Assembly: GCA_010909165.1 (NCBI GenBank)
Contig: MU008177.1
Span: 1,054,001-1,118,000, forward strand
Direction: 5' to 3'
Length of the DNA stretch: 64,000 nucleotides
Origin: Anthoceros angustus
Taxonomy: Eukaryota; Plantae; Anthocerotophyta
A program made the translations under genes and the position numbers. Below the pieces are notes generated by a model that searched no databases, was not told the origin of the DNA, and was given only the letters and a program-made list of their open reading frames with translations. Shown here piece after piece: positions 3,001-62,020 of this stretch. Position 1 is the stretch's first letter; every line of letters starts with the position of its first letter.

Positions 3001-3559
3001 CTTCATGCAGTTATCCCATCCATGGCATGCCACACATTCAAATACAAGTCTTATGACCTACTTTAGAAAACATCACCCTACGTGCCATGACACAATCCCT
3101 TTGGTCAATCGCTTTGCCTAGAGAACTCCTAATCGCTTTGAGGGAGCCAAAGCCGTTGAACTGCAGATTTTGGAGATAGGCATACTGGGCAAGGATGGAG
3201 AACGAGCTACCTCAAAAGTAAACGATGTGTTGACCGGTAGGCTGAAAGCATGTCGCTTGTAAGAGAAATTGTGGGCGCTGACGATCGAGTCCACTCCCGG
3301 AAATGGCCTTGAGGAAAGATGAGCGCCTCTTGGCGAGGTCTTGAGAAGGAAGGAAGAGGTCGTGAAGGAGAGTGTTCGCCTCTCCTTCCTTCCATAGAAG
3401 CATGAAGTCTACAAGGATACAAAGAATGTGCACAACCAAAATCCTATCATGGGCTTACTTTTTAAGACATATGTGTCCCCCGAAATGTGCACTCCAAACT
3501 ACAGGATTTGAGGTACACGCATAGCCTCCCCAATTGCCCCTGGAAGATGACCTAACATT

Positions 3560-4805: not shown

Positions 4806-5031
4806 ACATATGCGCTTGGCTCTAATTTGCAAATCCTCATTTTCACGCACTAAACACATGGAGATTCAACACCACTATGTTAGAGATGTGGTGGAGCATG
4901 GAGTTGTGCAAGTAGGCTATGTGCACACGATGAGAATGTTGCGATGTGTTGACCAAGGGCTTGGCAAAGCATAGACACTACAAGCACCTATCAAGCTTAG
5001 GCCTAGATGACTACACAAAGTATTTTGATGG
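4801..5031 (+). mobile_element. Copia RNase H C-terminal fragment (truncated copy)
   Basis: Encodes RTKHMEIQHHYVRDVVEHGVVQVGYVHT. At tattttgatgg it switches into transposase sequence. Confidence 0.85.
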
Positions 5032-12792: not shown

Positions 12793-12823
12793 GGGAAGGA
12801 GAGCAGGTTCTGCTCTCCTTCCC
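12793..12823. other. Perfect hairpin (14-bp stem, 3-nt loop) at the tandem-array boundary
   Basis: gggaaggagagcag-gtt-ctgctctccttccc, embedded in a longer imperfect inverted repeat (~12763-12870). Confidence 0.85.
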
Positions 12824-13138
12824 TTCCGAACCTGCTCTCCTTCCCTTCCCTCTTCCTTCCCTCGACCTGCTATCGCGACTGAAAGGACAAGATTCTGAAG
12901 ACTCTCAAGTGGTAGCACAGGCGAAGCGGTCCAAGAAGGCCCTGAAGATAACCGACGGAGATGGTGACCTGGTTGGAACGAGGTCATCACAGGCAGAGAC
13001 GGTGACATATCTGGTGACATAAGTTTGCTGAGATGTTTCCTGTGCCGTTGATAGAAAAGACACAAGAGCTTTCCAAGTTTGTGATCAAGCCTAATGAGCC
13101 GTTGAGATCTGCTTACTTGAGGTCTGCTTACTTGAGGT

Positions 13139-13852: not shown

Positions 13853-13963
13853 CATGTCCATGTCTCAGTTCGGACAGGAATGGACTTATCCATGTCTCAG
13901 TTGGACAGGAATGGACTTATCCATGTCTCAGTTTGGACAGGAACGGACATGTCCATGTCTCAG
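13853..13963. repeat. 32-bp minisatellite downstream of PPR copy A (3.5 copies)
   Basis: catgtccatgtctcagtttggacaggaatgga-type units; the same repeat follows PPR copies B and C. Confidence 0.9.
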
Positions 13964-14010
13964 CAAGCACATTCACCCCAATGAGCACTGGCAACGCTTC
14001 TTCGTGTTTC

Positions 14011-16633: not shown

Positions 16634-17208
16634 CGTTCAGGAACCGCTGTCGAAGGTGCATGGACAAACGCTCACAAACGCGTCCTCGCTACGGCACTAA
16701 CCCACAGCCTCCACAGCAGCCAGGCCAGTGGAGTGACCTGGACGGTGAATGGCAGTGCCTACAAAGCTGCTGAACAGCGGGCAGTTAATCTGTGCTCAGG
16801 ACATGGGAACTTGCTGCAGATTAGCAAGGATGGACTGCACCTGGAGAAAGTAGTATCGGCACCGACACCTGCACCTGGACCTGCACCGGAGAACATTTGT
16901 AGCATAGGCACCCGCAACCTTCTTCCACGCATGCTCATGGTTGGCTTCGGGCTTGCTAAGGTCAGCTGCTGAAGAAGGAGGTTCTACCAAGTTGGACGAC
17001 TTCGCAGGGCGCGAACAGGTGGCAGTCACACACAGAGAAAGCTTCGTGGACAACTGAGTGCTGTCCAAAGATTTCCCGAACATGAGCTAGTATCAGCACC
17101 TCCTTTTTGCCTCAGGTGATGCGTCTATGCTTGGCTATGAACTCTCTGGGTTTCCAGAGGATGTTGGGGTGGGTCTTGGACTACAGCTAAGCCCCAAGCG
17201 CTGGTCAG

Positions 17209-18967: not shown

Positions 18968-21664
18968 TCACGGTCGACCCTTACAACTGCAACAACCAGC
19001 TGTGAATCGATGCACACGGTACCCATCCCTTACAACAATGTCTCTTTGTTCAAGCCTTGACATGATCTCCGTGGAACTGTGGCAGTCACTGCACATGCGT
19101 AGATTCTTCGTTACCACCAGAGGTGTCCCACTCGGAGTGTTCAAGAGACCAAATGCCAAAGCTAGCTTCTCAGCATGCCCACAAAGCACATCTTCCTTTT
19201 CCTTCTCACACAATGGCGTCAACACCAACTTTGTGTGAGGCACGTGGCCTCCTTCCTGCTTCATACGTGCATTTGTGCTCTCTACCTTAAGCGCAATATC
19301 GTTCCTCCTGTCTCCCACCAGAAATCTGTGTACCTCCTTCTTCACCTCAATGCTCGCCACTGCAGGTTTTTTATTAGCTCCTGCTGCCCTTCTCTGTGTT
19401 TCAATCCTGTCTACATCAGTCCACCTACCTGCATCTGCGTAGGCATTAGCCATGAGCACATATGCAGACGCCATTTGAGGGTCCAGCCTAACAATCCTTT
19501 CAAAACACCACACAGCCCTCTCTATGTCACCGTGACTTTTGCAGGCATTCAACAAAGACGTCAAGCCCACAATATTACTTTGGCCCTCACATGATAATAG
19601 CATCTTCTCTGCCTCATGTAAATGGCCAGCACGCCCAAGAAGATCAATCATGCAGGTGTAATGCTCAATAGTAGGTTTGATGCCATGCTGTTCAGCCATG
19701 GAATCAAAGTGTTTGCGACCCTCATGGACTAGTCCCTCATGACTGCATGCTGCTATAAGACAAGTAAAAGTAGCATCATTAGGCTGAACACCGGCCCCTA
19801 ACATCTCCTCAAAACAAGCAAGTGCCTTGTGACCTTCATCACAAGCACCATACCCAGCAATCAGCGCTGTCCATGTCACCACATCCTTTGTGGCCATGCT
19901 GTCAAAAACCTGGCGTGCATCTTCCAGTTCACCACATTTTGCATACATGTCCACCAGGCAGTTGCCCACTACAACGTTATCCAGCAGCCCTCTTTCGACA
20001 ATCTGTGAGTGCAGTTGCATGCCCTTCTGTAAGGCACCAGTGCTTCCACAGGCCTTCAGAAGGCAAGCAAAAGTAACATGGTCAGCCAAAATAAGGCCCG
20101 CCTCCTCCATTTGTCCATACACAACAAGCGCCTCTTGGCCGAGTCCTTGCTGTGCATACCCAGCAATCAGCACTGTCCACGTCACAACATTCTTTGTGTT
20201 CATGCTGTCAAAAATCTGGCGAGCATCTTCCAGCTCACCCCATTTTGCATACCCAGCAATCAGCGCTGTCCATGTCACCACATTTTTTGTGTTCATGCTG
20301 TCAAACACCTGGCGTGCATCTTCCAGTTCACCACATTTTCCATACATGTCCACCAGGCAGGTGCCCACCACTACGTTATCCAGCAGTCCTCTTCCAACGA
20401 TCAGTGAATGCAGCTGCCTGCCCTTCTGCAAGGCACCAGTGCTTCCACAGGCCTTCAGAAGGCAAGCAAAAGTAACATGGTCAGCCAAAATGAGGCCCGC
20501 GTCCTCCATTTGTCCATACACAACAAGCGCCTCTTGGCCTAGTCCTTGCTGTGCATACCCAGCAATCAGGGTATTCCATGTCACCACATCCTTTGTGGCC
20601 ATGCTGTCAAAAACCTGGCGCGCATATTTCACTTCACCACATTTTGCATACATGTCCACCAGGCAGTTGCCCACAAACAAGTTAGTAGGGATGCCACTCT
20701 GCACCACATCACAGTGCACTTTTCTGCCAGATTCCAAGTCAGCGGCAAGGGCACAAGCTTGAAGGGCTGCTACAAAAATGTGAGCATCCGCCTTCACTCC
20801 TGACCTACGCATCTCATGGTACAGTTGTATGGCCTTCTGAGGTTTCCCGAGCTTAGCATGTGCAGAAATTATGGAAAACCACATAAAGACGTTAGGTTTG
20901 CCCACCCTGGTGAACACATCCATGGCCTCCTGCAGCCTGCCTTCACATGCATACATGCGCAGGATATGGTTCCCCAAGTATGAACTCGACTCGTACCCAA
21001 GTTTGGCAGTGAGATCATGAACTCGACGCCCCACAACCAAATCCTTCTTAGCAGTACACAGCTTTAGCACAGTGTACAACAGAGACTGAGAAATGGCAGA
21101 GTCTGTCTGCGCCAGAGATTCCAGGGCTCCAACGGCCTCAGAAAGCTTCCCCTGGTGACATAACGTGCTCACGGTAACAGCCGTTACGACGCTCATTTGC
21201 GATCCTCCACGCCTGCCAGGTTCAGGCTTATCCGGAGACCTGGACTCGGAAAGAGAGGGACCATGGCCCATCTGGATGTCCAAGGAAACCAGCTGCTCAT
21301 CAACCCAAGCTGGCTTAAACATGTTGTTTAACCACAGCACCTCGCCAGACCCCTTACGCCGGAAGTCAGGCGAACGGGAGCTCTTCTTCTCTCGTCTGTT
21401 ATCCCACCACATGGTAGGGTCCAGAAACAACTGTTGCCATAAGTGTTCCTGCTCCTGGCAACGACCATCGCTGGAAAACCCGTCCCTATCCACACGCTTT
21501 CTCGGAAGTGGAAGTTTTGGGCTCCCTAAAATGCTGCACGTGGAGGCTTTGCTTGCCAGGGGTCGACTCCCTAAGCTGAGGTTAGCAGGAGCTCCTCGTA
21601 GGATCCCTGTACACACACCAATTTGTTGGGTCGACAACGGATCCGGTTGCCATGCTGTGGCCAT
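18968..21664 (-). CDS. PLS-class PPR RNA-editing factor with E1/E2 and DYW:KP (GRP-type) domain and an N-terminal OSB-like PDF motif; copy B, intact, 898 aa
   Basis: Single uninterrupted ORF with ~16 P/L/S/SS motifs (VVTWNTLIAGYAQ, FACLLKAC, GNCLVDMYAKCG) and P2-L2-S2-E1-E2. It has KKPAVA in place of the PG box, HAEKLA and CSDCH zinc ligands, and ends CCSCKGRP. The Ser/Arg-rich N-terminus is compatible with an organelle transit peptide. Confidence 0.97.
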   Translation of the reverse strand: MATAWQPDPLSTQQIGVCTGILRGAPANLSLGSRPLASKASTCSILGSPKLPLPRKRVDRDGFSSDGRCQEQEHLWQQLFLDPTMWWDNRREKKSSRSPDFRRKGSGEVLWLNNMFKPAWVDEQLVSLDIQMGHGPSLSESRSPDKPEPGRRGGSQMSVVTAVTVSTLCHQGKLSEAVGALESLAQTDSAISQSLLYTVLKLCTAKKDLVVGRRVHDLTAKLGYESSSYLGNHILRMYACEGRLQEAMDVFTRVGKPNVFMWFSIISAHAKLGKPQKAIQLYHEMRRSGVKADAHIFVAALQACALAADLESGRKVHCDVVQSGIPTNLFVGNCLVDMYAKCGEVKYARQVFDSMATKDVVTWNTLIAGYAQQGLGQEALVVYGQMEDAGLILADHVTFACLLKACGSTGALQKGRQLHSLIVGRGLLDNVVVGTCLVDMYGKCGELEDARQVFDSMNTKNVVTWTALIAGYAKWGELEDARQIFDSMNTKNVVTWTVLIAGYAQQGLGQEALVVYGQMEEAGLILADHVTFACLLKACGSTGALQKGMQLHSQIVERGLLDNVVVGNCLVDMYAKCGELEDARQVFDSMATKDVVTWTALIAGYGACDEGHKALACFEEMLGAGVQPNDATFTCLIAACSHEGLVHEGRKHFDSMAEQHGIKPTIEHYTCMIDLLGRAGHLHEAEKMLLSCEGQSNIVGLTSLLNACKSHGDIERAVWCFERIVRLDPQMASAYVLMANAYADAGRWTDVDRIETQRRAAGANKKPAVASIEVKKEVHRFLVGDRRNDIALKVESTNARMKQEGGHVPHTKLVLTPLCEKEKEDVLCGHAEKLALAFGLLNTPSGTPLVVTKNLRMCSDCHSSTEIMSRLEQRDIVVRDGYRVHRFTAGCCSCKGRP

Positions 21665-22298
21665 CTTTCAGGGACCAGTGTCGGAGGTGCATGGACAAGA
21701 CTAGGCCGCTCACAAACGAGTCCTCTCTACGCGCACTAACCCACTGCCTCCACAGCAGCCAGGCCAGGGTTGGTGGACTGACCTGGACGGTGAATGGCAG
21801 TGCCTGAAAAGCTGCTGAACAGCGGGCAGTTAAGCTGTGTTCAGGACCTGGAAAATTGCTGCTCAATAGCAAGACTGGACTGCACCTCGAGAAAGTAGCA
21901 CCCCTGCACCTGCACTTGCACCTGGAGAAGGTAGCATTGACACCTGCACCTGAACCTGCCCCGGAGAATGTAGCATTGGCACCTGCACCTGCATTTCCCA
22001 AACATTACCTCGCTCAGCACCTCACCTTGCGACTTTTTGCCGCAGGTGACATGTCCAGGCTTGGCTGTGAGCTGCTATACTGCTTTCCTGCTATCGTAGA
22101 GGAGGGGCTTTGTCCTAGAGCTTCGAGGGACTTGGCTGGCGCTGAGCCCCAACCAGCCCATTGATGAGCTTCATATTCTCCAATATACATGGAAAATATA
22201 CCATAAATTGATATAATACATCTTATTGATAAATAATAGATATTATTGATTATAGTATATGAACGTCATTATTAGCATAGCAGTCTTTTTTTTGAGCA

Positions 22299-23452: not shown

Positions 23453-23762
23453 AAAGATAAGTAATTAGATTGATTAATTATAATCAAACACTAAACTCAA
23501 GTGCAAAGATTAGTATCACACGGCATAACAGGATGCATAAAAATAACAAACGAATGCGATAAGACTTGCCACCTACCCGCCCACATCCTTGCCTTCAAGA
23601 GTTCTTGACAAACTTGATCAAACTTAGCCGACTCCGACCTCGATCGAGCAACATGCCCCTCTTCACAAGAGCACCACTCGGCCCGGGACCGGAGGCAACC
23701 TTCCTTTGACCTGAATTCCCACCTCTAGAGTGATGGAGGTCGTCTCCGTCGTTCCTTCACCT

Positions 23763-38131: not shown

Positions 38132-41100
38132 ACCGTATCGAGGTCGGATTGTTGGTGGGGATGGCGGCGATTTGAATCGGTTGCATCGCAACTATCGAGG
38201 CTACCGCGATTCGATCGACATGAGGAGGTGGTACGATTTCAAGCGACGACCCGGTTCCCACCGACCGAGGAATTGAGATACGTCGGCCCTTGGGGTACAC
38301 TTTGTACGGCCGGAAGGGCAGCATGTGGGTATTTTACTAGGCGGAGTTGTGTAGAGAGGCTTTATCAGCTGGAAGGACTGTTTCAGCAATTTGGAGCGAG
38401 GCGGCAAAGGGGCTGGATTTGCCTCACGAGATCGAGGAGGCTCGGGCTAGCCTATGAAGGTTTTGCGGTACTTTGGGGCCACGTCGTGGGATTCGAGGCA
38501 GTGCCACCATCTTGCGTGAATAACTTGCCAATCCCCACACCCGGCGAGGGTCGATCACGGGCGTGACCCAGGGCCCTTGTGCTCCTATACACCAGCGGCG
38601 GCGGAAGGCTGGCGGCTCGCCACGGCAGGCGACGGAGGATCTAACGGCCCGGCTCGAGGGAGGCACGGCGGAATAAGAGGCGGATCAACTCGCGGGGCTT
38701 GAGGGCCGAAGGGCGACCTGCGGTGATGTACTAACCTTGGTGTAAGCTGGACATGAAATCCCGGCCGCAATGAGGGCTCGTGGTGTCCGGCAAGGTGATT
38801 CCTGTGCCATGCTGCCTTGTGGTAACCAAGATTGCAAAAGCTCTTGTGTGTGTAAATTGAGTCGAATCCTGGGCGAAGCGACAGCTCAGGGCTGTGAGGC
38901 TGTTCTCGTGCCAGCTGGCCTTGTGGTGCCTCCGCCGAGGGTTTTGCTCGAGTGGCTAAAGTGTGAGGCCGGATGCTAATTCCGCCGGAGCGACAGCCTG
39001 TGGATTGCGGAGGCGGTTCCCTCGCCAGCTCGTGGTTTTGGCGGTGCCTCCACTAAGATTATCCGGTGGAGTTGTGATTAGTAGGTAGTGAAGTCGCCTG
39101 CCGCCCAAGGCCGTGAAGAATTTGTGCACCTTGAAGGGGGGGGAACTGTGACTGCGACCACCGCCGGAAGTCATGGTGCATGTAATCAGCGTGGCACGCT
39201 CCATCGGCATGCAACAGTCACCAATGGACTCGAAATTTCAGTGCCGGCAGGTGATCACCGGTGCGGCGAGGATCGACCACTTACGAACCTCGCCACCAAC
39301 GCGCCTGTCCAGCAATCGAGAGTGAATCAATAGCCGTGGGGAATCGACTAAATTATGGACACGGCACATGGGTGGTGCACATCTCAAAGTGGGTGCCGTA
39401 CACAAAGCTCGGAGGGTTAGCAGCCGAAGTCATGCGGCTCACCGCCGGATTGCGTGATCGGAGGTCGGGTAGAAGATCTATCACCGCCAATCACACGGAT
39501 TGCAATCGCAGGCGAAGGTAATCAAGTCGCTTAGCAAGTATGGGGAGCAACTCGGCCGGATGCTGCGATTGTCAGCCACTGGGCCCGCAGCGGCGAGCAG
39601 CAACGCGAGGCGAGTCAATGCTCACTGAGTCACGACCACCTAGGGAGGCTGTGCCAGGTAGCACGTCCCACGGGCATTTACCTGGACAGTGAGACGCCAC
39701 TTTTGACCTCCGGAGCCATAGGACCCGAGCATATCTCGGGAGTTATGTGGCGCCTAATCCTCAACAAAGATGTTACCATCGCGCTACATTTCTCAAAGAC
39801 ACGCACTATTGTGGTGGATGCAGTGGAGGTTATCGCCCAAGGTACAATTACACCAACCACCCTCGACGCAGACGGATGGTCAATTTGGCACCTTTGAGGG
39901 GAGACAAATGGCGAGGAAAATTTGGCTAGGTCGCCAACGCATTTACGAAAGCACCACACACAAGAGTTTCGACGCCTCGTCCAAGCATCCGGGGATCACC
40001 AACGACGAAATGCTAGATCGCCGCGAGGCTTGCCGTCCGCAAGGATCGCTAAATGGCAGTGCCGAACATTTGAGGACGCAATTGTGTCGCCCAACAAACC
40101 GATGCTCGCTTCACCGGTTAAAGGGTGGTATAAGCAGCAACCCTGGGACGGAAGGCCTGTGACAATGCGACACCAATGGAACTCTAACACTTCAGCCATT
40201 TTGGTCATACTGCCAAGGATGGGGACACCGAGCACCTAGGACTGCCACGCAACACCGGACGAGGCCGAGGTGGTCGGGACGGGTGACGACCACCGCCCAA
40301 CAAAGAAGGATTTAGGCGAGGGAGACCCCAAGAAACAATAATGTCCAGATCAAGAATTGCAAGACTCGGAAAACGAGGCTTCCAGCAGCAGAGGGGCATC
40401 CCGAGGAGTGGTGACCATAGCCCTAGGGTCCGGCGACTTTTTACCATCCGAGGTCAAGTAAACAGTAACCTTTGTCGCATTTTACTCGACTCGGGTGCTA
40501 GTTCTAATTTTATGTCTAGGACTTTTGCTAAGCAGGGAGGTTGGGACACCCACCAGTTGTGTGGGCAGGTCCGGTTGGCCAACGGCCAGTGTCAGGCTAA
40601 TGCCACAATCAGCAATTATGTTAATTTACGCATGGGGGGCCACTGCGAGCGTCTCCGTTTCACCATCACCGATCTTGCCGAGGGGCATGATATCCTGCTG
40701 GGTATGCCTTGGTTAGAGGACCACAATCCAGTTATAACGTGGCCTGATCACGAGTTAACCTTTGCAGATTGGGGGGAGGCGCCTCACTGTACGAGGCGAA
40801 CAACTCACGGGAAGGAAGAGGAGGCAGTGCCAGCAAATTTCGGCCGCAGTACTAGAGTGTGCATTGCGCAAGGGGACCGAAGATCTTCAGCAAACCGTAA
40901 TTGTTATCAAGGAGAGGCTGTGTCCAACGCGATCGGACCAGCTTGTCGCCCCTGTAGGAGATACCAAACTGGCTGCCATAATGGATGAGTTCAAGGACGT
41001 GCTGGTCGACACACTGCCGGCAGGATTGCCCCCAGCTAGGGAGGGGTCGACCATCGATCGAACTCATACCGACAGCCGACCTACGTGTACGATGTCCGCG

Positions 41101-43529
41101 CTAGAAATCGAGGAGGCCACACGCCAAGTGGAGGAGCTCTTGAGGGATATATTCGCCATCAAGTCCCCACACGAGCCCCAAAACCTTCCTTAAGAAGAAG
41201 ACGGTAAGTCTGCATGTGATTATCGGGACCCAACCTAACGAAGAAGAACACGCCCCGCTACCACGGATTGATGAGTTCTTGGAGGGACTTGCGCGCGATT
41301 CTTCTCCAAACTCGACTCCAGCCTGGCTACCATCGATCCGTGATCGCCAACGGGACGGGAGAAGATGCGTTCAACACTCGACACGGCCACTATGAGTGGC
41401 TCGTGATGTCGTTCGGAATGACTAATGCGCCAGCCACCTTCGGAATCGATGAACGGAGTATTTTGTGGGATGATCAACAGAGAATCTTGGTGTACCTCGA
41501 TGATATCCCGTGTATGGGAGAACCGGAGGAGCATGACAAGAATCTACGCCAAGCTCACGACGGCTTAGGGCAAAGCATCAGTCGTGACAGCGTACCGTGC
41601 GAACTTCCGCAGCACAGCAAGGGAGTACTTAGCATATCATCAATGCTCGAGGTGTCCAAGTCGACAAGGTAGTGCTTATACAGGCCTATACCGAGTAAAG
41701 TACAGACGATGAGTTTCCTCGGGTTGGCTTCCTACTATCGCAAGTTTATCTCGAACTTTGCGCACATAGCACCCACTCACACCGCTTGCAACAGGGAGGT
41801 TCCTTGGGCGGAGCAAAGGCGGCCTTTGAAGCAATTAAACAGCACAACCAGCCCTGAAGGTTGTGTATCCCGACACCGCCATTTGTCATTGACGGACGCC
41901 CGACCTAGCCGGAGCGCATTTGCAGGATCGGCGGGGTCTACAACCAAGAGCATACTTCTCAAGGAAACCCAAGGAGCGGAACTCAATTGACGACGAGAAG
42001 GAGACGGCACAAGTGTTGGCCATCAAGAATGCTTTTGGAAGGTACTCCTGCTTTTACAGATCGACCACGCCGCTTTGTTTATCTACAAACCCGCGCAATC
42101 GGAAGCAAGCCCTGGCTGGAGTTCCCGCAATGATTACGAGGTGCGACGTGAAGGTCGAATCGCCGATGCAATCGAGTGCTCTCAGGCTAACTCCGTGTCA
42201 ACGATTTACACATGTTCAAACAGATCGGCAGGAGCAGATCCGTAGCGCTGTCGTTGATGCCACGGCGGCCGGTTGCAAAGCTATACAGATTTGGATCCAT
42301 TGACCGCAGGAGCATGACGGGTTGCTATGGCATTCAGCCGTTTCTTTATTCCACAGCTTGCTACATATCCGCCGAGATCATTGTCAAGCCCATGATTCAC
42401 CATCACCGCCACTGGGGTATTCAACGGACGCTACTAGCTGTCCAACGACCTTTTACTAGCCCCAACCGTGGAAGTACGTGACTATGTAGAACTCATGATA
42501 CTTGTCCGAATAAGGCACCCCGACTAAGCTAGGTTACTCCAACCGCCCCTGTCCCGCTCATGCCTTGGGACCAAGTCACTATGGATTTCATTGTCGGCCT
42601 TCCCCAACACAGTGTGCCACAATGCGCCTCCTAGTCTTCACCGACAAAGTTATGCTATGCTGCAGCCTACGATACTTTCATAATGGAGCAAAATTGCCTT
42701 CCTTGAGTGGTGTATCATACAAGATGGTCTCCCACCGCCTATTGATGATCGAGACCCGCGTTCTGTGGCACCTGCGTGGTGCGGTGGTGACTAAGGACTA
42801 AGCTATGCTTTTCTCAAACTTTCATCCACAGACGGACGGCCATGTAACGCGCCAACCAAGTTCTTGAAGATATCTGAAAGCACACCGGACTCCAACAGGA
42901 GCTCTGGGATGAGCATCTTCACTTTGCGGAGTTCGTATACAACAACGCCACCTGTCAGCTTCTACAGCGCCTCCGCTTATGTTCAACAAGGGATGTCCCC
43001 GTAGCCACGGAGTTTCTAACGACACGGATTGCCCTACAGAACAAGCTAGACGCCCGCCATGAGGCATGTAACTGTGCACAAAAAGAATCGACACTGTACA
43101 CAGAGCTCCAAGTCGACTTTCGTCCTCCTATCACGCAACCTACCTCCCATCGTCGGCGTCCCCGAAACTATCACCACGCTTTCTTTGGTCCTTACCAAAT
43201 CATACGCTGTAGGCCCTGGCCGCTATGAGCTTGCTTTACCTCCCAAGTCCGTTTGCACCCCTGTTCCACACCTCTCCTCAAACCCTATCATGGTCCTCCT
43301 CCCCACGCCCACCCCTATCCCCACCGACACAGTCCCGAGCACGAGGTTGAAGTCAGATCGACATCGCCATCAAGAAGAAGCTCCAGCTTTTAGTTCTTTG
43401 GGGATACCCACTATCCGACGCCACGGGAAAACCAGATCATCATCTCAAAGCACCCCGCATCCTTCACGACTACCTTACGCCATCAACTCACTCCCCGCCT
43501 GCGTGGTCGGCTTTAAACCCCGGGTGAGT

Positions 43530-43708
43530 TGTCACGACATAGGGTTAGGGTAACCATGGTTAAGAGGTATAGTTAGGTTAAGAGGTATAGTTAGGTTAGG
43601 GTAACCATGAGTGTAAAGGCTACTTAAGCCACAATCACCGTAATGAAGGCGAGCTAGTTGTGTGCTTCCACGCCCATTGCTCGACCGGCCAAGTTCATGG
43701 CTATTACA
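43530..43708 (+). repeat. 3' LTR of the nested chromovirus
   Basis: Near-identical to 37951-38131. Confidence 0.92.
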
Positions 43709-45203
43709 AGAAGAATGCTTCTAGCTTTATGTCGAGCTTAACTTGAAATTTATCACAGCGATCCAGACGGCCTTTCTTTATGGTCACCTTAAAGAGGAGA
43801 TCTACATGGATCAACCAGAGGATTATGAAGATAAGAAATTCCCTCACAAGGTGTGTAAACTACTCCAATATATGGACTTAAGCAAAGCCCACGCTTATGG
43901 TACGAGAGAATGGATTCTTATCTCAAGAAGTTGGGGTTCATTCCAAAGTGAAGATACTAACATCTATGTACTCGGGATAGCTCACTTGTACTTGTTGCCC
44001 TATATGTCGATGACTTAGTTATTCCAGCAATAATGTTGAATGGTCAACAAGATAAAATGATTTGAGCAAAGAATTGAGATGAAGGATCTCGCAAAGTTAA
44101 ATATATTCTTGGAATGCATGTACATAGAGATAGCATCGGAGCTATTTATCTTCATCAAGGACGATATGTATGGTATGCTAAAACGCTCAACTTGGAACGT
44201 GACGAGCGAGCCCACACCAGCCGTTGGTGTTAAGCTCATCGCTCCCCGCCTGCAAGAGGACAAGAAGGAGATGGAGATCGTGCCCTCACCGCATGGGAGT
44301 TGGAACTCTCATGTTCTTGAGTAATCAGACAAGACCAGACATCTCAAACACCGTGAATGCTGTTGCTCAGTTCTCAGAGAATCCAGGGAGGGATCACTGG
44401 GTTGCTCTCAAACGCATCATGCGATACCTCAAGGGTACTCAAAACTATGGCCTATGCTACAAACCTAGCGGAAAGAAGCGCCTCCTACTTACATGTTATG
44501 TCGATGCAGATTGGGCTTTGGACGCTGACACCCGGAAAAGTATCTCAGCATATTGCTTTCTTGCTAGCTCCACTGTTGTTAATTGGTCTTGTAGAAAACA
44601 AGCAGCCATATCACTTTCATCAATGTAATCGAGTACAAGGTTCTCACCAAGCCACCAAAGAGGCTGAATGGGAAAGGAAGCTATGTGAGGATCTGGGTAT
44701 GACGCAGAAGGGCCAACAATACTTAACTGTGATAATATGTCAGCAATTGCTTTAGTTGCTAACCCCGTGTTCCATGCACGCACGAAACACATAGAGATTC
44801 AACATCACTATATTCGTGATGCTGCAGAAAGGGGAATAGTAAAGGTACAGTATGTACCAACAGACGACAACACAGCAGATGTGCTGACCAAATCCTTGCC
44901 CAAGTTTAAACACTGCTTCCACAGAGAAGGGCTTGGATTAGTAGACTGTAGTAGCTTTATGACGCTAGACAAGTCACTCATATGGTGAGGCTTATCATCT
45001 TTTGTTCCATCACTTGAAGTTGATGCTTGTTCCCCGCCTTGGCCACAACCGTGTACTACTCCGTGAGTCTGGAGAGCCGCCACACGGAGTACGGAATGCG
45101 AGTTGAGACAAAGTAGTGGAAGATCAGGCACATTGCAAGACTACAACGAGTGGTCTCCTTTGTTTTACGGAGATCTCGGATAACTCAACGGTCCGAGAGG
45201 GAG

Positions 45204-48090: not shown

Positions 48091-49621
48091 AGAACCTGAG
48101 CCTGACCCTGAACCAACCCTACGACGTTCCATACGCCATAGGCCACCCCCAGACCAGTGGTTAGAACCCTACTAACCAACGTCGATTTCCGAACGTCTTC
48201 GGCAGTTTATGGTGCTACACAGAATATCCCTCCTGCCGAGGAACCCTATCATACAAGGAAGCCCTCCGTGGCCCAGATTGCTCCAAGTGGCAGGCACTAG
48301 TGGAGGATGAATACCAATCTCTGCTCAAGAACAAGACTTGGAAAATCGCTGACCTACCACCTGGATGCAAAGCCATCTCATGCAAATGGGTTTTTAAACT
48401 TAAACTCAACGCTAAAGGGGAGATTGCCAGGTACAAAGCCAGACTGGTGGCAAGAGGATTTACCCAGGTTGAGGGCCTGGATTACCAAGAAACATTCTCA
48501 CCAGTTGTTCGAGCACAATCCTTTCGCATATTGCTGGCTCTTGTAGCAGAATTGAACCTCGACTTACAGCAAATGGATTTGTGTACGGCCTTCCTCTATG
48601 GAGACCTGGATGAAGACCTGTATATGACACAACTTGAAGGATACGAAGACCCTGAACATCCCACCAAAGTGCTTAAACTGCTCAAGTGCATATATGGACT
48701 AAAACAAAGTGGCAGAATATGGTATATCACCATGCATATCTAGCGGATCAGCATATCCTTTGTCCAAAGCACAGCAGACTCTAACGTTTACAGACTCAGC
48801 CAAGGAAGTGACTTCGTCATATTAGCCCTATATATCGATGATGTCATCCTCACCACAAACAGTAAAACTCTGTTAGCTGATGTTAAGCAAAAGCTAATTA
48901 CCAAGTTCGAGATGAAAGACATCGGAGAACTTAAATACTGTTTGGGAGTTCAAATTCTAAGGGTACGAGAGGAAGGGCTACTGATAGTTCACCAGCATAA
49001 AATATATCAATGACATTTTGCGAAAATTCAAACTTGACGAAGCTAGACCCTCAACTACCCCCTTTACCATGGGCGTCAAACTCACCAGTCTCCAATGCCC
49101 ACAATCTGAGGAAGATATTAAGGACATGAAGGATGTCCCCTACATATGCAAATTAAATCTTCTTAGCAAATTGGACAAGGCCAGATATACGGTATTCTGT
49201 AAGTACAGTACCACAATTCCTGGAGAATCCAGGAAGAGCACATTGGGCTGCTGTCAAGCGGATTTTGCGCTATCTTAAAGGAACCCACAACTATGGACTC
49301 TTCTATCGTAAGGACTAGATAGAATCACTCCCGAGGGACGTGATGTCGATCAAGGGCGTCGGATGTTGATTCCGAGAAAGAGTCTTTCCACCTACTGCTT
49401 CCTATTAACTTTGGCTGCTGTGAACTGGTCGTGTAAGAAGCAATCTTCCATAGCCCTGTCATCCACAGAAGCAGAATATATAAGTCATTGACAGATGCTT
49501 CAAAGGAGGCTGAATGGGAAAGGACCTTCCTTCACGACCTCGACCAGACCCAGCAGACACCTACCCCTATCATGTGTGATAACATGCCAGCCCTAGCCCT
49601 TGTCGCTAATCCATGTTTTAG

Positions 49622-49642
49622 AAACCCTAAACCCTAAACCCT
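49622..49642. repeat. Interstitial telomeric repeat (AAACCCT)3
   Basis: Perfect aaaccctaaaccctaaaccct inside the Copia RNase H NP.FHARxKH motif. Confidence 0.9.
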
Positions 49643-50047
49643 GATCTAAACATATAGAAATACAACATCACTACATTAGAGATGTGGTGGAGCGCGGAGT
49701 CGTGAAGGTGGGTTATGTGCACACAGACTCTAATGTCGCAGATGTGCTAACGAAAGGATTGGCAAAACACAAACACTACCAGCATCTTTCAGGGCTAGGC
49801 CTGGACGACTACACCAAGTATTTCAGATAACTTATCTGTGGTGGGGTGGGGTGGGAACCCGAAGGTTCCCTTGGGAATTATGTTGTGCCCTCATTCTTCC
49901 TTGAAGGCACACAGGAGCTGTAGGCGCCACACACGTTCCCTCAGGCAACGCACTCCTGTTAGTGGAACAAAAGAGGGAGATGGACAGCCTTGCAGGGAGG
50001 ATGAAGCTTACCTTAAGACCTAATCTCCTGGCAACGCCATACTTCTC

Positions 50048-53348: not shown

Positions 53349-53901
53349 TGTGATACTAATCTACGCACTTGGGTTTAGTGTTTGATTAGCATTAATTAAT
53401 CTAATTACTTATCTTTAAGTAAGTAATTAGTGTTAATTAATCTAAAGTGCTTATGTTAATTAAGCGTTGATTAGTGTTAATTAATCTAATGTGCTTATGT
53501 TAATTAAGCATTGATTAGTGTTAATTAAACATGGTTAGCAATAGCTAAGTGGATAAGCTCAAGTAATATTTCCTTGCATATTATAGTGTATTCTTAGGAT
53601 ACAATAGCTAAGTGGATAAGCTCAAGTAATATGCTTTGGCATATTCCTTGCATATTATAGTGTATTCTTAGGATATTTCGGCATATCGATGCCAATAGGA
53701 TATCTTAGGAATATGATGCCAGGTCTAGTATATAGACCCTTCCATTGAGGACAAGCTCGATCATAGCTTGTCCTCTAGATATGCAATGCAAGAGCGAGGA
53801 GGCCAAAGCTATGACCCGAGGCGATGTGTGAGGAATTTGCGTGTTGTTCTCGTGGGAGAGTGTGTTTGTGCCACGACGTGCTACTCCTCCCTGTTGTTAC
53901 A
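53349..53901 (+). repeat. Terminal repeat A1 (LTR-like, TGT...ACA)
   Basis: Near-identical to 61373-61924; contains internal 44-bp TTAATTAA-rich and ~65-77-bp tandem duplications. Confidence 0.9.
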
Positions 53902-53917
53902 AGCTATGATCTCGGCA

Positions 53918-54047
53918 CTAGGTGATGCTAGGCGATGCTAGGCGATGCTAGGCGTGCTAGGCGATGCTAGGCGCTAGGCGATGCTAGGCGATGCTAGGCG
54001 ATGCTAGGCGATGCTAGGTGATGCGAAGGCTGCTAGGCGCTAGGCGA
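53918..54047. repeat. 10-bp minisatellite (ctaggcgatg)n
   Basis: About 13 copies, some degenerate. Confidence 0.92.
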
Positions 54048-54096
54048 GCCACGAGGCAACGCTAGTTCTTTAAGCAAGTGCAAGGGACTAAGTGTG

Positions 54097-54416
54097 CCCA
54101 AGGCTTAGGCCAAGGAGAGAGGCAAGAAGCCCAAGTCCAAGGCCAAGGAGAGGAGGAGAAGAAGCCCAAGCCCAAGGCCAAGGAGAGGAGGCAGCCCAAG
54201 CCCAAGGCCAAGGAGAGGAGGCAAGAAGCCCAAGTCCAAGGCCAAGGAGAGAGGCGAAGCCCAAGTCCAAGGCCAAGGAGAGGAGGAGAAGAAGCCCAAG
54301 CCCAAGGCCAAGGAGAGAGGAGGCGAAGAAGCCCAAGTCCAAGGCCAAGGAGAGGAGGCGAAGAAGCCCAAGTCCAAGGCCAAGGAGAGGAGGCAAGAAG
54401 CCTACCAAGGAGAGGA
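54097..54416. repeat. Purine-rich ~30-33-bp minisatellite (aagcccaagtccaaggccaaggagaggagg...)
   Basis: About 10 copies; this accounts for the low-complexity ORFs in all frames. Confidence 0.92.
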
Positions 54417-54626: not shown

Positions 54627-57275
54627 TACGTCTTTGCTATCCAACTCACCCACTTCTTTTGACTATGATATAGCCTGCAGAGTATTTCTATGCGATTTTA
54701 ACATGCATACATACTTAGAGGTTTCACTAATCACGATCTAAGATAGCGGGGTGTGTTAACCTTGATTAAGGGTTTGATCTAGCCACTAACCGCCTGGAGT
54801 GCTCGACACACTCGATCCGGACGGAGCTACCAACCAACAAGTCCATCGAGCGAATTCAAGTCCCGACCAAGAGGGAGAAGTGCCACCGATTTTGGTACCA
54901 CAAGGACGCGGAGGAACCCAGACACACAATCAACAATCTTTGAAGGATCCGTGAGTGGCAACACACAAGACACGTTAGTGCTGCCGGACAACTCGGAAGC
55001 GAGAGGAGGACTTGTCTCTTGGAGTCGTCAAGATGGGAGGAGACAAGGATCGAATGGAGTTGTTCACAGACGAGCGGCACCTTGCCACCGGAGGACTTCA
55101 TCGAGAAGTACGGTGTGTGCGGAGATGGAATTGAAGACCGGATACACGAAGCGATACGGCTTCATCCAAATGCAAGTACTTGGGGATGAAGCATTGGCGT
55201 GCTATCGCGAGCACAAGGCGAGGCTGTTGAGCGCACATGGAGGACCAGTGAGTAGCAGTTCAAGCTCAAGGAACCAGACGGGGCGGTGGCACCGAGTGGG
55301 CACGATCCCATCAAGAGATGTTTGACATCTTCCTACCGGAGTTCCTGCAAGCACGGATGAGAAGATCTCGTGACACACACTTCAAGATGAAGTCAGCGAG
55401 ACTGCAAGATGGCTTATCAAGAATCGACCAGTTGGTACGTGACACCAAGATCATGAGTGACCGACCGCAGAGAAGTACTTGGGCATTGCCATATGCACGC
55501 ATGAAGGTGCAACAAGCGGTGCATGCACGGGGGCAACACTACACCCTCAAGGAAGTGTACGAGATGGTCGACAAGATAGGGCCCGCGACACTTTCTCTCG
55601 CTGTCAAGTGATTACTCCAAAGACAAGTAGGAGTGGTGGACGACATGACCGACGCGGAGGTCGAGTGGAGGAGCTCGGCGAGACAAGCCAGCCCACCCCA
55701 AGTGACGAGCCCCGTGAGGTGCCGAGGACGGACCATTCCCTCATGAGTGCGAGCATGCATTCGGAGGAGTCAAGGGTGAGGAGCCATGCCCTAGGTGTGG
55801 AGGTACGGCACAATGAAGCGGCATGTTGGAGAAGCATCCGAATTGCGGCCTACGGGTTATCGAGCAGCAACCCCGCCAATGCATCCGCCAACCTCATCCA
55901 CAAAATCGAAGAGCAAAGGCGCCGTGGAGGAGGCACCCAAGTCCCGTGGACAAAAGAAACGGGAAGCATCAAAGAAGACGATGGATGCACGTGGCACGCC
56001 TTGCAAAGCTGGAGAAGTTGGTGCGGAAGGCGAAGATCAAGGAGAGCAGTTCATCATCGAGGACGAAGAAGATGAGCACAAGCTTGGATACATGTCGTGA
56101 CCGATCCAAGGGCAGGAAGAAACCGCAGCTACGAGAGAAGATAGCTCGAGGAAGAAGAGGATGTCTTGACACCGAGCGGAAGACACGGAAGGAAGCTTCG
56201 GATCCTCTTCCCGAACCTATGCCAAGATGCCAAAGTCGTTTGAGCCATTGCCAGGAGCAACTGTGGAGCAACATCAAAGTCCAGTGGGCGATGTGGAGAA
56301 ACCCATGCGATTGCGACGGAGACGATGGCACAAAAGCTCGGAGATGCCATGTTTCACCTACAAGACATGGGGTTGAGCGTGAAGGAAGTCAGGGGTTTGA
56401 CTCGGCGGATGTTGACAACCCTTGAAGACGAAGCAAGTGTCGACAATGTGCCACAACAGGTGGCAATGATGTCATTGCTGACCTCGGAGCCAAGCATCTC
56501 TGTGGAGAAGCGGAATGCTGCACGAGTGGGAGTGGCTTTGGTCAACAATCAAGAGAGGCACATTGAAATCAATGGATTCGCACCAAGGAGGGTGTTGATT
56601 GACACCGGAGCACAGCCGGTGATCGTTGGAAGAAGAGTGAAGGAAGCGTTGGGTCTCCACCAAGAAAGGTTGAAGGAAACCAAGTGGAAGATCCACACAC
56701 CGGGACCACGGAGCATGTGTTGGGGTGACAAGGTACAAGCTGAAGGTTTCATTCAAAACAAACAGACTTCACCTTTGTCGAGGTACACCGCTTGGTCACC
56801 GATGCGACACTTTTGATGTCTTGGGAGCGGACGCTTTGTACAAACCTCGAGTCATGGTGGATTTGTGGACGGAGACATACTATCGACCAGCCGGAGAAGC
56901 TGGAGCAAAACCGATGAACGGATTGCCCGCATCCCTCTACACTGCATGGCAAGGATCATGAGAACCTCATTGCCAACAGCGTCTACCCGTGTTTGGCGCC
57001 AGAGTGAAGGACACGCCATACGTGCTTGAACCTCTTGGCGTGTGTCTAACAACCGCAATCGACCCGATGGAGGATTTCGAGGAGGAGGAAAACAAGCTAG
57101 GGTTGCAACCACCCGGAGGAGGTTCTTCAAGTCACTGGACGGAGCTGGTGATGCAGCAATGAGCAAAAGTGTGGAGGATGGTGCAAGAGGACCGGTCCTA
57201 TGAGAGAACTAAGTTCTTGCCTAGGGTTGAGCCTGTTTGTGACCTAAACACCTGTGTCATCACATGGCGACCTCG

Positions 57276-58160
57276 GAAGACGGCATAGTGCTCGTGGAAC
57301 TCTTTGGAGGCATCGACGGCTTGAAGCTAAAGTGTGGCATCAAAGTGCGAAGATACGTGCATTGTGACCCGGATCCAAAAGCAAGGATTGTGTCACGAAG
57401 CGTAAGAGACTTGATGGGGAGTACTAACCTCCGACGTGGAGTGTGAAGGGTTACCTATACCGCCGATGGATGTTCGCATGATAGGGTTGTCCCATTTGAG
57501 TTGTCTTGGGCAACCGTGGACCTTGTCATCGCAGTTGGGAGTGTCAAGGACTATCCTCTGCAGTAAGGGTCAAGGTCTCAAGGATCCATAACAGCATTGT
57601 TCTATGACTGATGAGGATCTTGCGCTTGATCCGTAAAGGGCAAGAAAGGCCTTGTGGATACATGTTGGAGAATGTGCCAAGATGCATGAGCGTGAAGAAG
57701 CAAGTTCGGAGGACTTTGCCACGATCCGAGGAGTGTTGGGTCGAGCTTCTATTGGATGCACTCAATTTGGTTCGAGGGCTCATAGGTTGAGGTCCATGTG
57801 GACTAACCTTGCTCCTTGGAACATTTGAAGTGTGCGAGGTCGCTCACCAAGCGACCTAATCATGTTGTCAAGGATGTGCTAGCATCGGAAGGCATGCCCA
57901 ACAAGTCATCAAGACTGCCGCCGCACTTCCTGTGAACACGCCTGACACCCCATGGCGGCTTGGCCAACCTTTGTGTCTAAGTCCAAGTCTTACGCCTTCA
58001 GGAACCATGGCCCCGGTGGTGGATGACATGGCGAGGTTTTGGGAGAGCCACCACGAGAGGAGTTGGCCATGGATTTGATGCCGGAGCAAGACACCGGAGT
58101 GACCGAGAAGGAACGGTGTCGATTGCTTGGGCAAGCATTTGACGTGAACATGATGACTGG
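57276..58160 (+). pseudogene. DNMT3-like C5 cytosine DNA methyltransferase domain within retrotransposon pol (frameshifted)
   Basis: Motifs in canonical order: I IVLVELFGGI, II KVRRYVHCD, III DVR.I, IV VDLVIA.WECQGLS (catalytic Cys), VI YMLENVP, VIII LDA.QFGSRAHRLRSMWTNL, IX/X RELAM...ERCRLLGQAFDVN. Confidence 0.88.
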
Positions 58161-61061
58161 TTGTTTAGCGCCGAGTCGCTTACCAACTTCAAACCAAGAA
58201 GGCGGGGTTGAAGCGGGTTCGGTGGGTGAAGGATATTCCGACTCGCATCTCAACAGGAGAAGGCGAGTTTGGAGGGCAAGGAGAGCGAGCACGTAGAGGA
58301 AGCGTGCAAGCCATCGAGCCACGCCCACATGAGTGGTTAACAGGCCGAGTTGAAGAGCAATCAACGGCCGCCTAAAGGAGTTGTTGGAGGCATCGCGACA
58401 TGTGTTTGCTTTCACGCTATGGAGATGGGGAAGTACACCAAAGGGAAGTTCCACATAGAATCGACCACGGATGAACCAAAGTGTTCAGAGAGGGTGAAGG
58501 CTGAGTGGGATTTGGTTGAGAATCGATGCCAAGAGCTTCTCAAGCTAGGGCTGATTCGACGATCTAACTCGCAGTACGCAGCTGCGACAGTGCTTCCGAA
58601 AAAGAAGGATGAGAATGGATTGTGGACGGAGAGGAGAATGTGTGGTGACTATCGGCCGTTGAACGAGCGAATCCCACATGACCACTATCCCATGCCGACG
58701 GCCGAAGAGATCTTCGACACCATTGGGTCTGCCAAGTTCTTCTCAACATTGGACTTGAGGCTAGGGTTTCACCAAGTAGAGATCGCCGAAGAAGACAAGA
58801 AGAAAACGGCGTTCTGGGGCAGAGATTGCTTGTACGAGTGGAACTACATGCCATTTGGGTTGAAGACATCGCCAACGCAGTTCCAAAGATACATGGACAA
58901 TGAGCTCAAGGACTTGCCTTTCGCCAAGTGCTACATTGATGATGTCATCATCTTCAGCAATACCTTTGAGGAGCATCTACAACATCTTCGAGCAGTCTTT
59001 GCTAGACTGGCTGCCTGGGTTGAAGGCCCATCCAGGGAAGTGTCGATTTGGAGAGGACAAGGTGTTGTACTTGGGTCATTGGATCACGCCTGACGGGATC
59101 TCGCCGCATGCCACCAAGGTGGAGGCAATCGCGCGCATTCCCAGGCCAAACGACATCTCGAAGTTGAGGGCATTCTTGGGGTTGGCAGGTTACTACAGGA
59201 AGTTCATTCCGCGGATGAGCAGGATTGCGCGGCCATTGAATGACTTGTTGAAGAAGTTGGTGACTTGGCGTTGGACTCAAGAGGAGGAGTCAGCTTTCAT
59301 GGAGTTGAAGGGTAGACTCATGAGCTCGCCAATTCTTGGTCATCCAAACTTGAAGCGCTCGATTTTACATCGATTGGAGCAAGTACGATAGGCGCCTTGG
59401 CGCAGATCAATGACAAGGAAGAGGAACATGTCATTGCCTATGCCACGGAGCAACAACCAAAGCGGAGTCCAACTACTCTGCCTATGAAGGAGAATGTCTT
59501 GCAGCAGTGTGGGCAGTGGACACTTTCGTCCGTACTTGTTTGGACATCAATTTCGAGATCACCACCATCAACCCTTGCATTGGTTGATGACGAACGCCAA
59601 GCTTAAGGTGGCGAGGTGGGCTCTCATTCTCCGTGAGTATGACTTTGTCATCGAACACCGAGCGTAGAGTTCACTCTAATGCCGATGGGTTGTCAAGGAA
59701 TCCTCTACCGTAACGAAGACACTAGGGCCGTGCAAGATTCGATGACGAGCAATGGGGAGAGTAGTCCAGATACCATGTTGGCTATGCCGCATGAGGATGT
59801 CAAGATGCCCTCCACTCATCGCTTTGTATGCAGAGTCCGTCAGGGACATCTGGGCGGATGCAATAGCGGTGACCTTCCTAAGGTCGGGAATTGCCACAAG
59901 GGCTTTCATCTCGAGCAGGCCAAGCTACGAGAAGGTGGCTCGATTATTGGAAGGAGGACATAATGTATGTCCGTGATTCTGGGAGATAGAATTGTACCCA
60001 AGCCGGAGGACGGGTGAGACTCATCACCTGTGCATGAAGGCTTAGGGCATTTTGGTGCTAAGCGCACCTACAAGATGCTCAGCCCACACACTTTGGGCAA
60101 GGATGTATGGAGATGTGGAAAGGTCGCACGTCGAGTGTGCGATCGAGTGAAGGCAAGGTTCATACCAATGATGTTGTGCTTCACTCCGATCCGAGGACTC
60201 TTCTACGTGGAGTGTGGATCTCATGCCGACATGCCGAGACGCAGATCGGAAACAAGCATGTCATGCTAATGGTGGAGCATTTCAGCAAGTGGTGCGAGGT
60301 TGCCATCTTACCCAAGCGTGACTCTCACCAAGAAGGCGTTCTTGGCTTCCGTTCTTAGTCGATATGGAGCATGCGAGGTTCTCACCGACCAGGGCAAAGA
60401 ATTCGTGGGGAATTTCAAGACTTGCTTGACAGAGCTTGATTGATCATCGACGCCGAGAGATCATCCTCAAGCCGATGGACTTGCCGAACGCTTGGTGCAC
60501 CTTCAAGCGGCCTTGCGCAAATATTGTCTCACAAATGACCAAGACATGGGATGAAGGGATGCCATACCTAGTGCTAGGGTGTGGTGAGCAATCAAGCACC
60601 TTGAGCAATTTTTCACCATACTACTTGTTGTATGGGCGACAACCATTTTGCCAAACGTGAGGCAAGCAAGGCTACAAGCACTGGATTGGCGCAATGCGGA
60701 TGATTGCCTACGAGACCGGAAAGGCGGGCGAGCTTTTCAAACGGATCATGCCCATGGCAATGGAGAACCTTGCCATAGCGCAACATGGGATCAATGCGCT
60801 ATGCTTACACACGAGGAGGGACATGGAAACCCAAGGTGCGCAAGTTCAAGTTGGAGATTATGTCTACGCGGAAGCCGTGCAACACCTTGGAGGTATCCAC
60901 CACAGTCATCTTGCGGTCGTGCGAGTAGGCAAAGATGGAGTGCTTGAGCTCAAGGATCCGATGGTCAAGATGGAAGGATCACCTCAAGAATCGCGCACCA
61001 TGCCACTTACCCAATTTGGACCCTCAACTACGGCCCATAATGTGGCCCACCCAAAGACTTG

Positions 61062-61196
61062 GAGTGTCGTTTGTGGACGATCGATGATGATGATGTAATG
61101 CTTCTTTGTGATCGGTGCAATAGGGGATACCACATGTTTTGTGTTCAACCACCTCTTGACGACATTCCCGAGGAAGATTGGTTTTGTGCACAATGC
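61062..61196 (+). other. PHD finger (C4HC3) at the integrase C-terminus
   Basis: C.VCGR.DDDDVMLLCDRCNRGYHMFCVQPPLDDIPEEDWFCAQC, with small indels in the first codons. Confidence 0.9.
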
Positions 61197-61267
61197 ACTA
61201 CATGAGGTGCGACGATGTAGTCCTACTAATGATAATGTTTTGACTTGGAGTCTCACATTATCGGGGG

Positions 61268-61372
61268 ATTGGTTTGCACCTATATACCGTATTAGATTTG
61301 TTTGCTTGGTTGTTGGTCGAGGAAGTGCTTATATGAATTCAAGTGCTTACCTCGTATGCATACCGCCATGCC
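61268..61372 (+). repeat. Terminal repeat B1
   Basis: attggtttgcacctatatac...gtgcttatatgaattca, repeated at 61924-61996. It follows the purine tract ggggga. Confidence 0.85.
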
Positions 61373-61924
61373 GTGATACTAATCTGCACTTGGGTTTAGT
61401 GTTTGATTAGCATTAATTAATCTAATTACTTATCTTTAAGTAAGTAATTAGTGTTAATTAATCTAAAGTGCTTATGTTAATTAAGCATTGATTAGTGTTA
61501 ATTAATCTAATGTGCTTATGTTAATTAAGCATTGATTAGTGTTAATTAAACATGGTTAGCAATAGCTAAGTGGATAAGCTCAAGTAATATGCTTTGGCAT
61601 ATTCCTTGCATATTATAGTGTATTCTTAGGATACAATAGCTAAGTGGATAAGCTCAAGTAATATGCTTTGGCATATTCCTTGCATATTATAGTGTATTCT
61701 TAGGATATTTCCGCATACCGATGCCAATAGGATATCTTAGAATAATGCCGGTCTAGTATATAGACCCTTCCATTGAGGACAGCTCGATCATAGCTTGTCC
61801 TCTAGATATGCAATGCAAGAGCGTTGTGAGGAGGCCAAAGCTATGACTCCGGTGAAATGTGAGGAATTTGCACCTCGGGGAGAGTGTGTTTTGTGCCACG
61901 ACGCGAGCTACTCCTCCCGTGTTA
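61373..61924 (+). repeat. Terminal repeat A2
   Basis: Direct repeat of 53350-53899. Confidence 0.9.
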
Positions 61925-62020
61925 TTGGTTTGCACCTATATACTGCGTATTAGATTTGTTTGCTTGGTTGTTGGTCGAAGTGCTTATATGAATTCATGTT
62001 TACTCCGATACAACCTCGCA
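61924..62020 (+). repeat. Terminal repeat B2
   Basis: Direct repeat of B1, near-exact to 61996 and weaker beyond. Confidence 0.82.

Follow-up and report, generated by a model that had tools for sequence, protein, structure and literature searches.

Retrotransposons that carry a Dnmt3 domain were described by de Mendoza et al. (2018, PMC5890265) from Klebsormidium nitens and from Symbiodinium. The available text of that study regards KnitGypsy-Dnmt3 as the outcome of a capture within the lineage of K. nitens. It is multi-copy, combines Gypsy domains and a DDE integrase with a Dnmt3-like domain that is unpermuted, free of introns and part of the coding region, and has DIRS-like repeats in the order A-coding-B-A-B, and in all of these respects the locus described here resembles it. 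No methylation by KnitGypsy-Dnmt3 was obtained in yeast, a result judged inconclusive by the authors, and human DNMT3B failed there too. SymbioDIRS-Dnmt3, according to the same text, gave de novo CG methylation in yeast, and methylation of cDNA is the authors' proposal; it shares with the present family a Dnmt3 domain associated with a reverse transcriptase (RT), split repeats and two domain orders, but differs in its DIRS-type RT and tyrosine recombinase and represents a separate capture. A different likeness is to the Tf1/Sushi elements and the plant Tcn1 elements, the primer-binding sites of which are complementary to their own predicted RNA 5' ends; these are chromoviruses with chromodomains, whereas the element here has a PHD finger, a methyltransferase (MTase) and split repeats (Neumann et al. 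2019, PMC6317226). The accessible part of that paper mentions neither PHD nor methyltransferase. EpiLTRs and DAM-LTRs are also LTR elements with a methyltransferase and a chromatin reader, but they are of a DNMT4-related, DAM and chromodomain kind and the preprint reporting them, in its accessible portion, sets them apart from the streptophyte Gypsy-DNMT3 elements (bioRxiv 10.64898/2026.05.21.726589).

The window, i.e. the whole stretch of 64,000 nucleotides that was analysed, contains a DNMT3-like C5 cytosine MTase domain at 57273..58170 (+), which is interrupted by eight frameshifts and two stops but keeps the catalytic Cys, ENV and AHRxR. We have little doubt that this MTase domain belongs to a Gypsy retrotransposon that is present in many copies and is of the KnitGypsy-Dnmt3 kind. 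The best explanation of the locus as a whole, to which we give a probability of about 0.6, is a Gypsy-DNMT3 element, probably of a hornwort, whose enzyme, in intact copies, likely methylates the element's own new DNA.

A preliminary description had listed C5-MTase motifs in their usual order across frameshifts, and direct reading of the translation recovered every one of them on the forward strand: VELFGGI (57294-57314), DVR (57469-57477), DLVIA (57519-57533), WECQGLS (57536-57556, with the catalytic Cys codon at 57542-57544), ENVP (57668-57679), AHRLRSMWTNL (57778-57810) and ERCRLLGQAF (58111-58140). Read in the same way, the protease motif VLIDTG lies upstream (56592-56609, +) and the RT motif YIDD downstream (58932-58943, +). 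The description of the domain as lying inside pol, between protease and RT, was therefore right as to strand and position, but one reading frame is not readable here and many relatives close their first ORF after the MTase. When a profile made from the MTase domains of 40 relatives was run against all six frames of the window, significant matches were confined to 57276-58167 (57276-57401, E = 2.6e-6; 57536-57718, E = 1.3e-8; 57463-58167, E = 7.6e-27), the other three matches having E-values of 0.5 or worse. The frameshift-aware search that had been proposed as a check, carried out with X at the breaks, aligned 57273-58170 to profile positions 2-320 of 327 with a score of 191, against about 16 for the controls (25 shuffles, 15.9 +/- 1.8 with a maximum of 19.5; reverse strand, 16.2; 11 other segments of the window, 14-20). 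The companion check against Pfam PF00145 gave a divided answer: the window's MTase falls into 10 stop-to-stop pieces and, owing to this fragmentation, not one of them matched, but the link is made through intact relatives, 8/8 scanned MTase-bearing proteins passing the cut-off. Out of 38 highly conserved columns the window keeps 27, three fall on breaks and eight differ, and among the collected proteins its highest identity is 37%, to P0001 and P0197. The motifs linked to activity are in place, namely the catalytic Cys (motif IV), ENV (VI), RxR (VIII) and the SAM motifs I and X; in motif IV a Glu replaces the Pro before the catalytic Cys.

The assignment to the DNMT3 type was upheld by profile, by single-protein comparisons and by fold, all of which ranked DNMT3 first. 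A profile of 44 relatives compared with solved structures gave 5e-26 for DNMT3A (5e-26 to 9e-20 across DNMT3A/B/C), 7e-13 for DRM, 2e-8 for M.HhaI and 7e-5 for DNMT2, and the MTase proteins of single relatives likewise placed DNMT3 at the top. The structure predicted for P0192, a relative with the Glu-Cys (EC) motif and not the window's own copy, has a pLDDT of ~95 over the MTase domain and superimposes on DNMT3A with Z 28.9 and an rmsd of 2.5 over 270 residues, the best bacterial enzyme reaching 25.3. A DRM identity or origin was rejected, as the motifs run from I to X without circular permutation and DRM falls far below DNMT3 in the profile comparison. Host DNMT3 catalytic domains (the DNMT3A/B/C structures and PpDNMT3b, from the accessible part of PMC6453930) are alike in fold, motif order and catalytic residues, but the window family is only ~20-24% identical to them, has GW[PE]CQ as motif IV, is encoded in a mobile element and is without PWWP, ADD or the plant DUF.

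A Glu at the position of the motif IV Pro is uncommon among C5 enzymes. The earlier remark that the change from PC to EC keeps the catalytic Cys was confirmed, and the EC form proved to be common to about half of the family. Among 40 family domains 20 have GWPCQ and 18 GWECQ; 146 further matches comprise 66 EC, 49 PC and five other forms, with no motif found in 26. The Calypogeia protein CAM6101866.1 and P0001 are examples of the EC type with an intact domain, and P0148 is one of the PC type. EC is therefore a state of the family and not damage, and decay as its origin is ruled out by its family-wide occurrence. The motif IV state changes three times along the MTase tree, and the Cys of motif IV, the Glu of motif VI and the Arg of motif VIII are shared by 44/44 aligned relatives and all present in the window.

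The remainder of the element is that of a Ty3/Gypsy retrotransposon, with the order protease-RT-RNase H-integrase and a DDE integrase. A presumed gag region, assigned by position only, occupies 54783..56500 (+). It is followed by a broken aspartic protease at 56529..56928 (+; four frameshifts; PF13650, E = 1.9e-5, above the cut-off) and, beyond the MTase, by a broken RT and RNase H at 58363..59704 (+; seven frameshifts; PF00078, E = 1.1e-23), within which RNase H pieces matching PF17919 and PF17917 (+) stay below the cut-off. A broken DDE integrase with a C-terminal PHD finger then extends over 59848..61196 (+; 10 frameshifts, three stops; PF00628, E = 1.4e-12; PF17921, E = 0.019). The full order from gag to PHD finger proposed at the outset was accordingly recovered from the protease onwards, but gag at 54783-56500 had no Pfam family above the cut-off and no tblastn match from the collected relatives. 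Identity as a DIRS or tyrosine-recombinase element was discarded, the 3' coding region being occupied by integrase and PHD finger; no recombinase family appeared among 35 pieces of the window scanned with Pfam.

Breaks are spread through all domains at 5-11 per kb, the MTase having 11.1. The two A repeats described below differ by 10 mismatches yet 14 gaps, and elsewhere the window has gap-rich tandem units but also one intact gene of 899 aa, so that many of the breaks in this copy may be assembly errors and the copy is not necessarily dead. Window positions 1-13000 are made up of tandem units, ~4-5 kb long, that include the tail of a Copia RNase H; between copies there are 79 gap openings per 110 mismatches, which points either to old decay or to an assembly rich in indels. 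Another broken pol of Gypsy-like type, along with Copia pieces, is found at 40287-43553 (+), 43900-44900 and 48165-49900 (+), with no MTase match there.

A search with the window's RT frame found 379 proteins, of which 120 were listed, many of them annotated with both RT and PF00145. The MTase precedes the RT in 37 of these 120 matches, follows the RNase H in one and is missing from the same protein in 82; by tblastn 35 of the 120 match the window's MTase region. Many of the RT matches without an MTase are partial or come from two-ORF forms, and members that have no MTase at all may exist. Conversely 10/14 matches to the MTase of one relative are without RT, and two relatives, P0123 and P0002, on contigs equally long, suggest two-ORF forms, so that one-ORF and apparent two-ORF forms both occur. 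The MTase domain of a relative matches 265 clusters (at 50% identity) with E<=1e-30 and 822 at 1e-10. The other domain order, RT-RNase H-MTase-integrase, is the commoner among distant matches (79/146) and includes P0131, P0171 (Hariotina) and P0225 (Scenedesmus). Two further family members, P0176 and P0198, are filed in cyanobacterial or other bacterial metagenome bins and are probably eukaryotic contigs binned wrongly.

Evidence that MTase and RT have descended together came from FastTree trees of 58 taxa (57 relatives with both domains, and the window), built with neither a named Klebsormidium MTase nor a host DNMT3 outgroup. The trees agree, as the preliminary description had proposed to check, in that 16 of the 25 MTase splits with support are found again in the RT tree; MTase and RT distances correlate at 0.61, the highest value among 200 shuffles being 0.20. 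Both trees fully separate the two domain orders and place the window with the MTase-before-RT type. Sequencing contigs over protease, MTase and RT numbered 953-3525 per run in four DNA runs from three studies with three organism labels, and covered 29-30 of 30 bins; of the 10 joints listed none removes the whole MTase. These are short contigs, not one of which covers the whole stretch, and one run, X1, may be the window's own source. No RNA run was among those listed as containing the element, which counts neither way. In X1 only, within 56200-59400, depth over the RT is about tenfold below that over protease and MTase; contig depth gives no copy number, and RT-less derivatives are one possible cause. 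Among the listed variants (34 of 129 variant places used) the synonymous ones are 5/9 in the MTase, 5/9 in the protease and 8/15 in the RT.

These data bear on whether a piece of a host DNMT3 or DRM gene was inserted just once, into this copy. That the MTase is the most broken domain, if by a small margin, would fit such an event. The same position is, however, found in the 37 listed RT matches just mentioned, the trees are congruent, coverage extends to three organisms and the motif order is unpermuted, unlike that of DRM, which leaves the one-off insertion a practically negligible probability.

Placement of the window inside the family was not resolved by IQ-TREE in an RT tree built by a quick method from 112 rows and 167 columns, in the RT-RNase H tree (36 rows, after eight of 43 chosen rows had been dropped as partial or near-duplicate) or in the MTase tree (49 rows). 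As regards the RT lineage, the window falls inside a 32-row group that holds the Klebsormidium elements and is set apart from four outgroup rows (support 100/100, with sampling by search match), and among the matches listed the Klebsormidium RTs are 51-54% identical to that of the window. No named Klebsormidium MTase was recovered by the searches for relatives, so that it is RT, architecture and repeats that tie the element to KnitGypsy-Dnmt3. The EC form of motif IV, the PHD finger, self-priming and the two domain orders are features of the window family that are absent from the available KnitGypsy-Dnmt3 text (PMC5890265).

The ends of the element, all on the forward strand, lack two full LTRs and, as read from this one copy, have the split layout A-coding-B-A-B. 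Repeat A1 forms the left end (53350..53895; 523 positions identical to A2) and would correspond to the downstream part of an LTR with promoter, R and U5; no B-like sequence was found upstream of it. The sole TATA-like box in A1 (53729..53734) stands 30 nt before a putative self-primer at the predicted RNA 5' end (53759..53771), which recurs in A2 at 61786-61798 and is a perfect reverse complement, over 13 nt, of the primer-binding site at 53899..53911, 3 nt after A1. A tandemly repeated 5' leader follows (53920..54400). At the other end a short G run (61263..61267), from its position a candidate polypurine tract, directly precedes repeat B1 (61268..61372), presumably the upstream LTR part; then come repeat A2 (61373..61923) and, at the right end, repeat B2 (61924..61999), which is 92% identical to B1 over 79 nt and has an uncertain outer end. 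The preliminary description had noted neither the split terminal repeats nor the signal for self-priming. In repeat A the predicted RNA start is flanked on both sides by an 11-bp inverted repeat (53745-53776). A lone fragment of repeat A is found at 23453-23539 (-), preceded by an apparent B tail, i.e. a B|A join.

Complementarity of 13 nt or more was reached in only 4/3000 control windows, and the 13-nt primer word occurs three times in the window against 0.06 expected. The leader is predicted to fold into a structure closed by the primer pairing, the support for which is modest (z -1.83; 9/200 shuffles as good). As in Tf1, the predicted RNA 5' end is complementary to the primer-binding site, and judged from these sequence features the element likely primes itself. 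No tRNA genes were found in the window. Transcription would start in A1, ~30 nt past the TATA box, and the 5' end of the RNA would fold back onto the primer-binding site and prime reverse transcription without a tRNA. Reverse transcription would yield cDNA bounded on either side by a complete B+A repeat, its ends could then join as a two-LTR circle, and a circle opened inside one repeat and integrated would leave A...B-A-B.

B2 starts exactly at the end of A2, a seam resembling the junction that such a circle would have, and from this single copy we lean slightly towards the circle route. The alternative is that the element had ordinary B+A LTRs, that the left B was lost and that the right B was gained by rearrangement or assembly error. 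The layout was seen in one copy in an indel-rich assembly, and a scan for target-site duplications at the element ends, where there is no clear right end, gave four candidates, which is the chance level; both points are in keeping with ordinary LTRs. Since the same layout is published for KnitGypsy-Dnmt3 (in the available text of PMC5890265) and the A2|B2 seam is exact, we regard ordinary LTRs as unlikely and retain the circle route as the preferred reading.

Within this cycle the MTase would be made as part of the polyprotein and then cut free by the protease; it may accompany the replication proteins, perhaps inside the particles that the preliminary description envisaged, and it would methylate CG in the cDNA before insertion, so that a new copy would arrive already marked. 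From the conserved residues the enzyme is probably active in intact copies; that the element's own cDNA is its main target we consider an even chance. The observed/expected ratio of CG is 0.80 in the element, 0.89, 0.51 and 0.62 in three other retroelement stretches and 0.46 in a PPR gene; CG is thus not depleted in the element and there is no footprint of repeated CG self-methylation. CHG is lower in the element (0.59 vs 0.86-1.11), which could also stem from host CMT. The MTase may instead have been retained for a role that calls for little or no methylating activity; it could, for example, bind or shield the cDNA, or titrate methylation factors of the host. The lack of CG depletion agrees with this, as do the silence of KnitGypsy-Dnmt3 in yeast and the exchange, in about half of the family, of the Pro next to the catalytic Cys for Glu. 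Such a role appears improbable in view of the catalytic Cys, Glu and Arg invariant in 44/44 relatives, the full DNMT3 fold predicted for P0192 and the likewise negative yeast result with human DNMT3B (both yeast results from the accessible text of PMC5890265).

Alternatively an active enzyme might have chromosomal DNA as its chief target, either where the element inserts or in other copies, and be guided there by the PHD finger of the integrase. In animals the ADD domain guides DNMT3, a PHD finger ends the integrase here and in many relatives, and in moss it is DNMT3 that methylates heterochromatin de novo. Against this, many relatives end the gag-protease ORF with the MTase and have the PHD finger on the RT-integrase ORF, so that the two need not be joined, and we rate a chiefly chromosomal target as somewhat less probable still than a non-catalytic role. 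Methylation of the element's own new DNA by the intact-copy enzyme remains the reading that we prefer.

The preliminary description had suggested an embryophyte host, probably a hornwort, and this was supported by other genes in the same window. Three PLS-PPR-E-DYW paralogues, at 13917-16636 (-), 18968-21667 (-) and 28420-31041 (+), are 89-93% alike; one of them, at 18968..21667 (-) and outside the element, is an intact frame of 899 aa ending in GRP and serves as a host marker. The GRP end and a HAEK site are found in the intact copy and in the forward-strand copy, and the genes are candidate hornwort U-to-C editing factors. GRP is one of two hornwort variants of DYW:KP and is distinct from the lycophyte and fern forms (PMC9478123); PMC13386178 has no GRP or DRH as a whole word. 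The host is almost certainly an embryophyte and very likely a hornwort.

An algal origin of the window, through a contaminant or a chimeric contig, would bring down the land-plant claim for the window, and many of the close RT matches, among those listed, are indeed algal. Yet the GRP-type PPR-DYW genes sit on the same window, 32-44 kb from the element, the repeat A fragment at 23453-23539 lies among them, and in Marchantia, Calypogeia and Sphagnum the named relatives lie on contigs of chromosome scale. An algal source is accordingly very improbable.

The named relatives are automatic gene models, some with missing parts. Mp2g26090 of Marchantia comprises MTase-RT-RNase H, the Calypogeia relative gag-protease-MTase and the start of the RT, and the Sphagnum magellanicum relative part of the MTase and the PHD finger; P0007 and P0192 would be Sphagnum-like, judging from 93% identity to the named protein. 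Relatives were also found in Closterium and, with the other domain order, in Hariotina and Scenedesmus. The novelty claimed earlier for land plants therefore stands in part: bryophyte members are real, but the family extends beyond hornworts, to Marchantia, Calypogeia, Sphagnum and Closterium as well as to chlorophytes. Whereas the host of KnitGypsy-Dnmt3 is an alga, that of the window is a land plant, probably a hornwort, and its relatives span bryophytes, Zygnematophyceae and chlorophytes.

According to an opinion paper (PMC6338049), land plants such as tracheophytes have no transposons that encode methylases, the hosts that it lists being green algae and charophytes; papers of 2025 and 2026, in their accessible parts, mention streptophytes with land plants unnamed. 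No report of a bryophyte Gypsy-DNMT3 element was found in the literature searched, a scope outside which subscription journals and Repbase fall and whose supplements may hold members. The available texts of PMC10952607, PMC12344493, PMC6453930, PMC11982613, 10.1101/2023.01.30.526367 and 10.1101/2022.06.16.496473 contain none. The Gypsy-DNMT3 kind is already published; the extension of its host range to bryophytes is the new part, and it is real.

With the window and the Marchantia, Calypogeia and Sphagnum proteins, each of the three bryophyte groups is represented in the family, and the Scenedesmus and Hariotina proteins show that it reaches the chlorophytes. A more far-reaching picture, tentative and in its entirety more likely to fail than to hold, is of an ancient green-lineage Gypsy clade, extending from chlorophytes to the three bryophyte groups, that would combine tRNA-free self-priming, DDE integration of two-LTR circles and an active Glu-Cys DNMT3 methylating cDNA, and that, at high copy number, might provide hornworts with a second source of de novo methylation. 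The presence of the family in bryophytes is relevant to the counting of host DNMT3 genes in their genomes, and it moves the question of the enzyme's role into transformable plants with methylation mutants.
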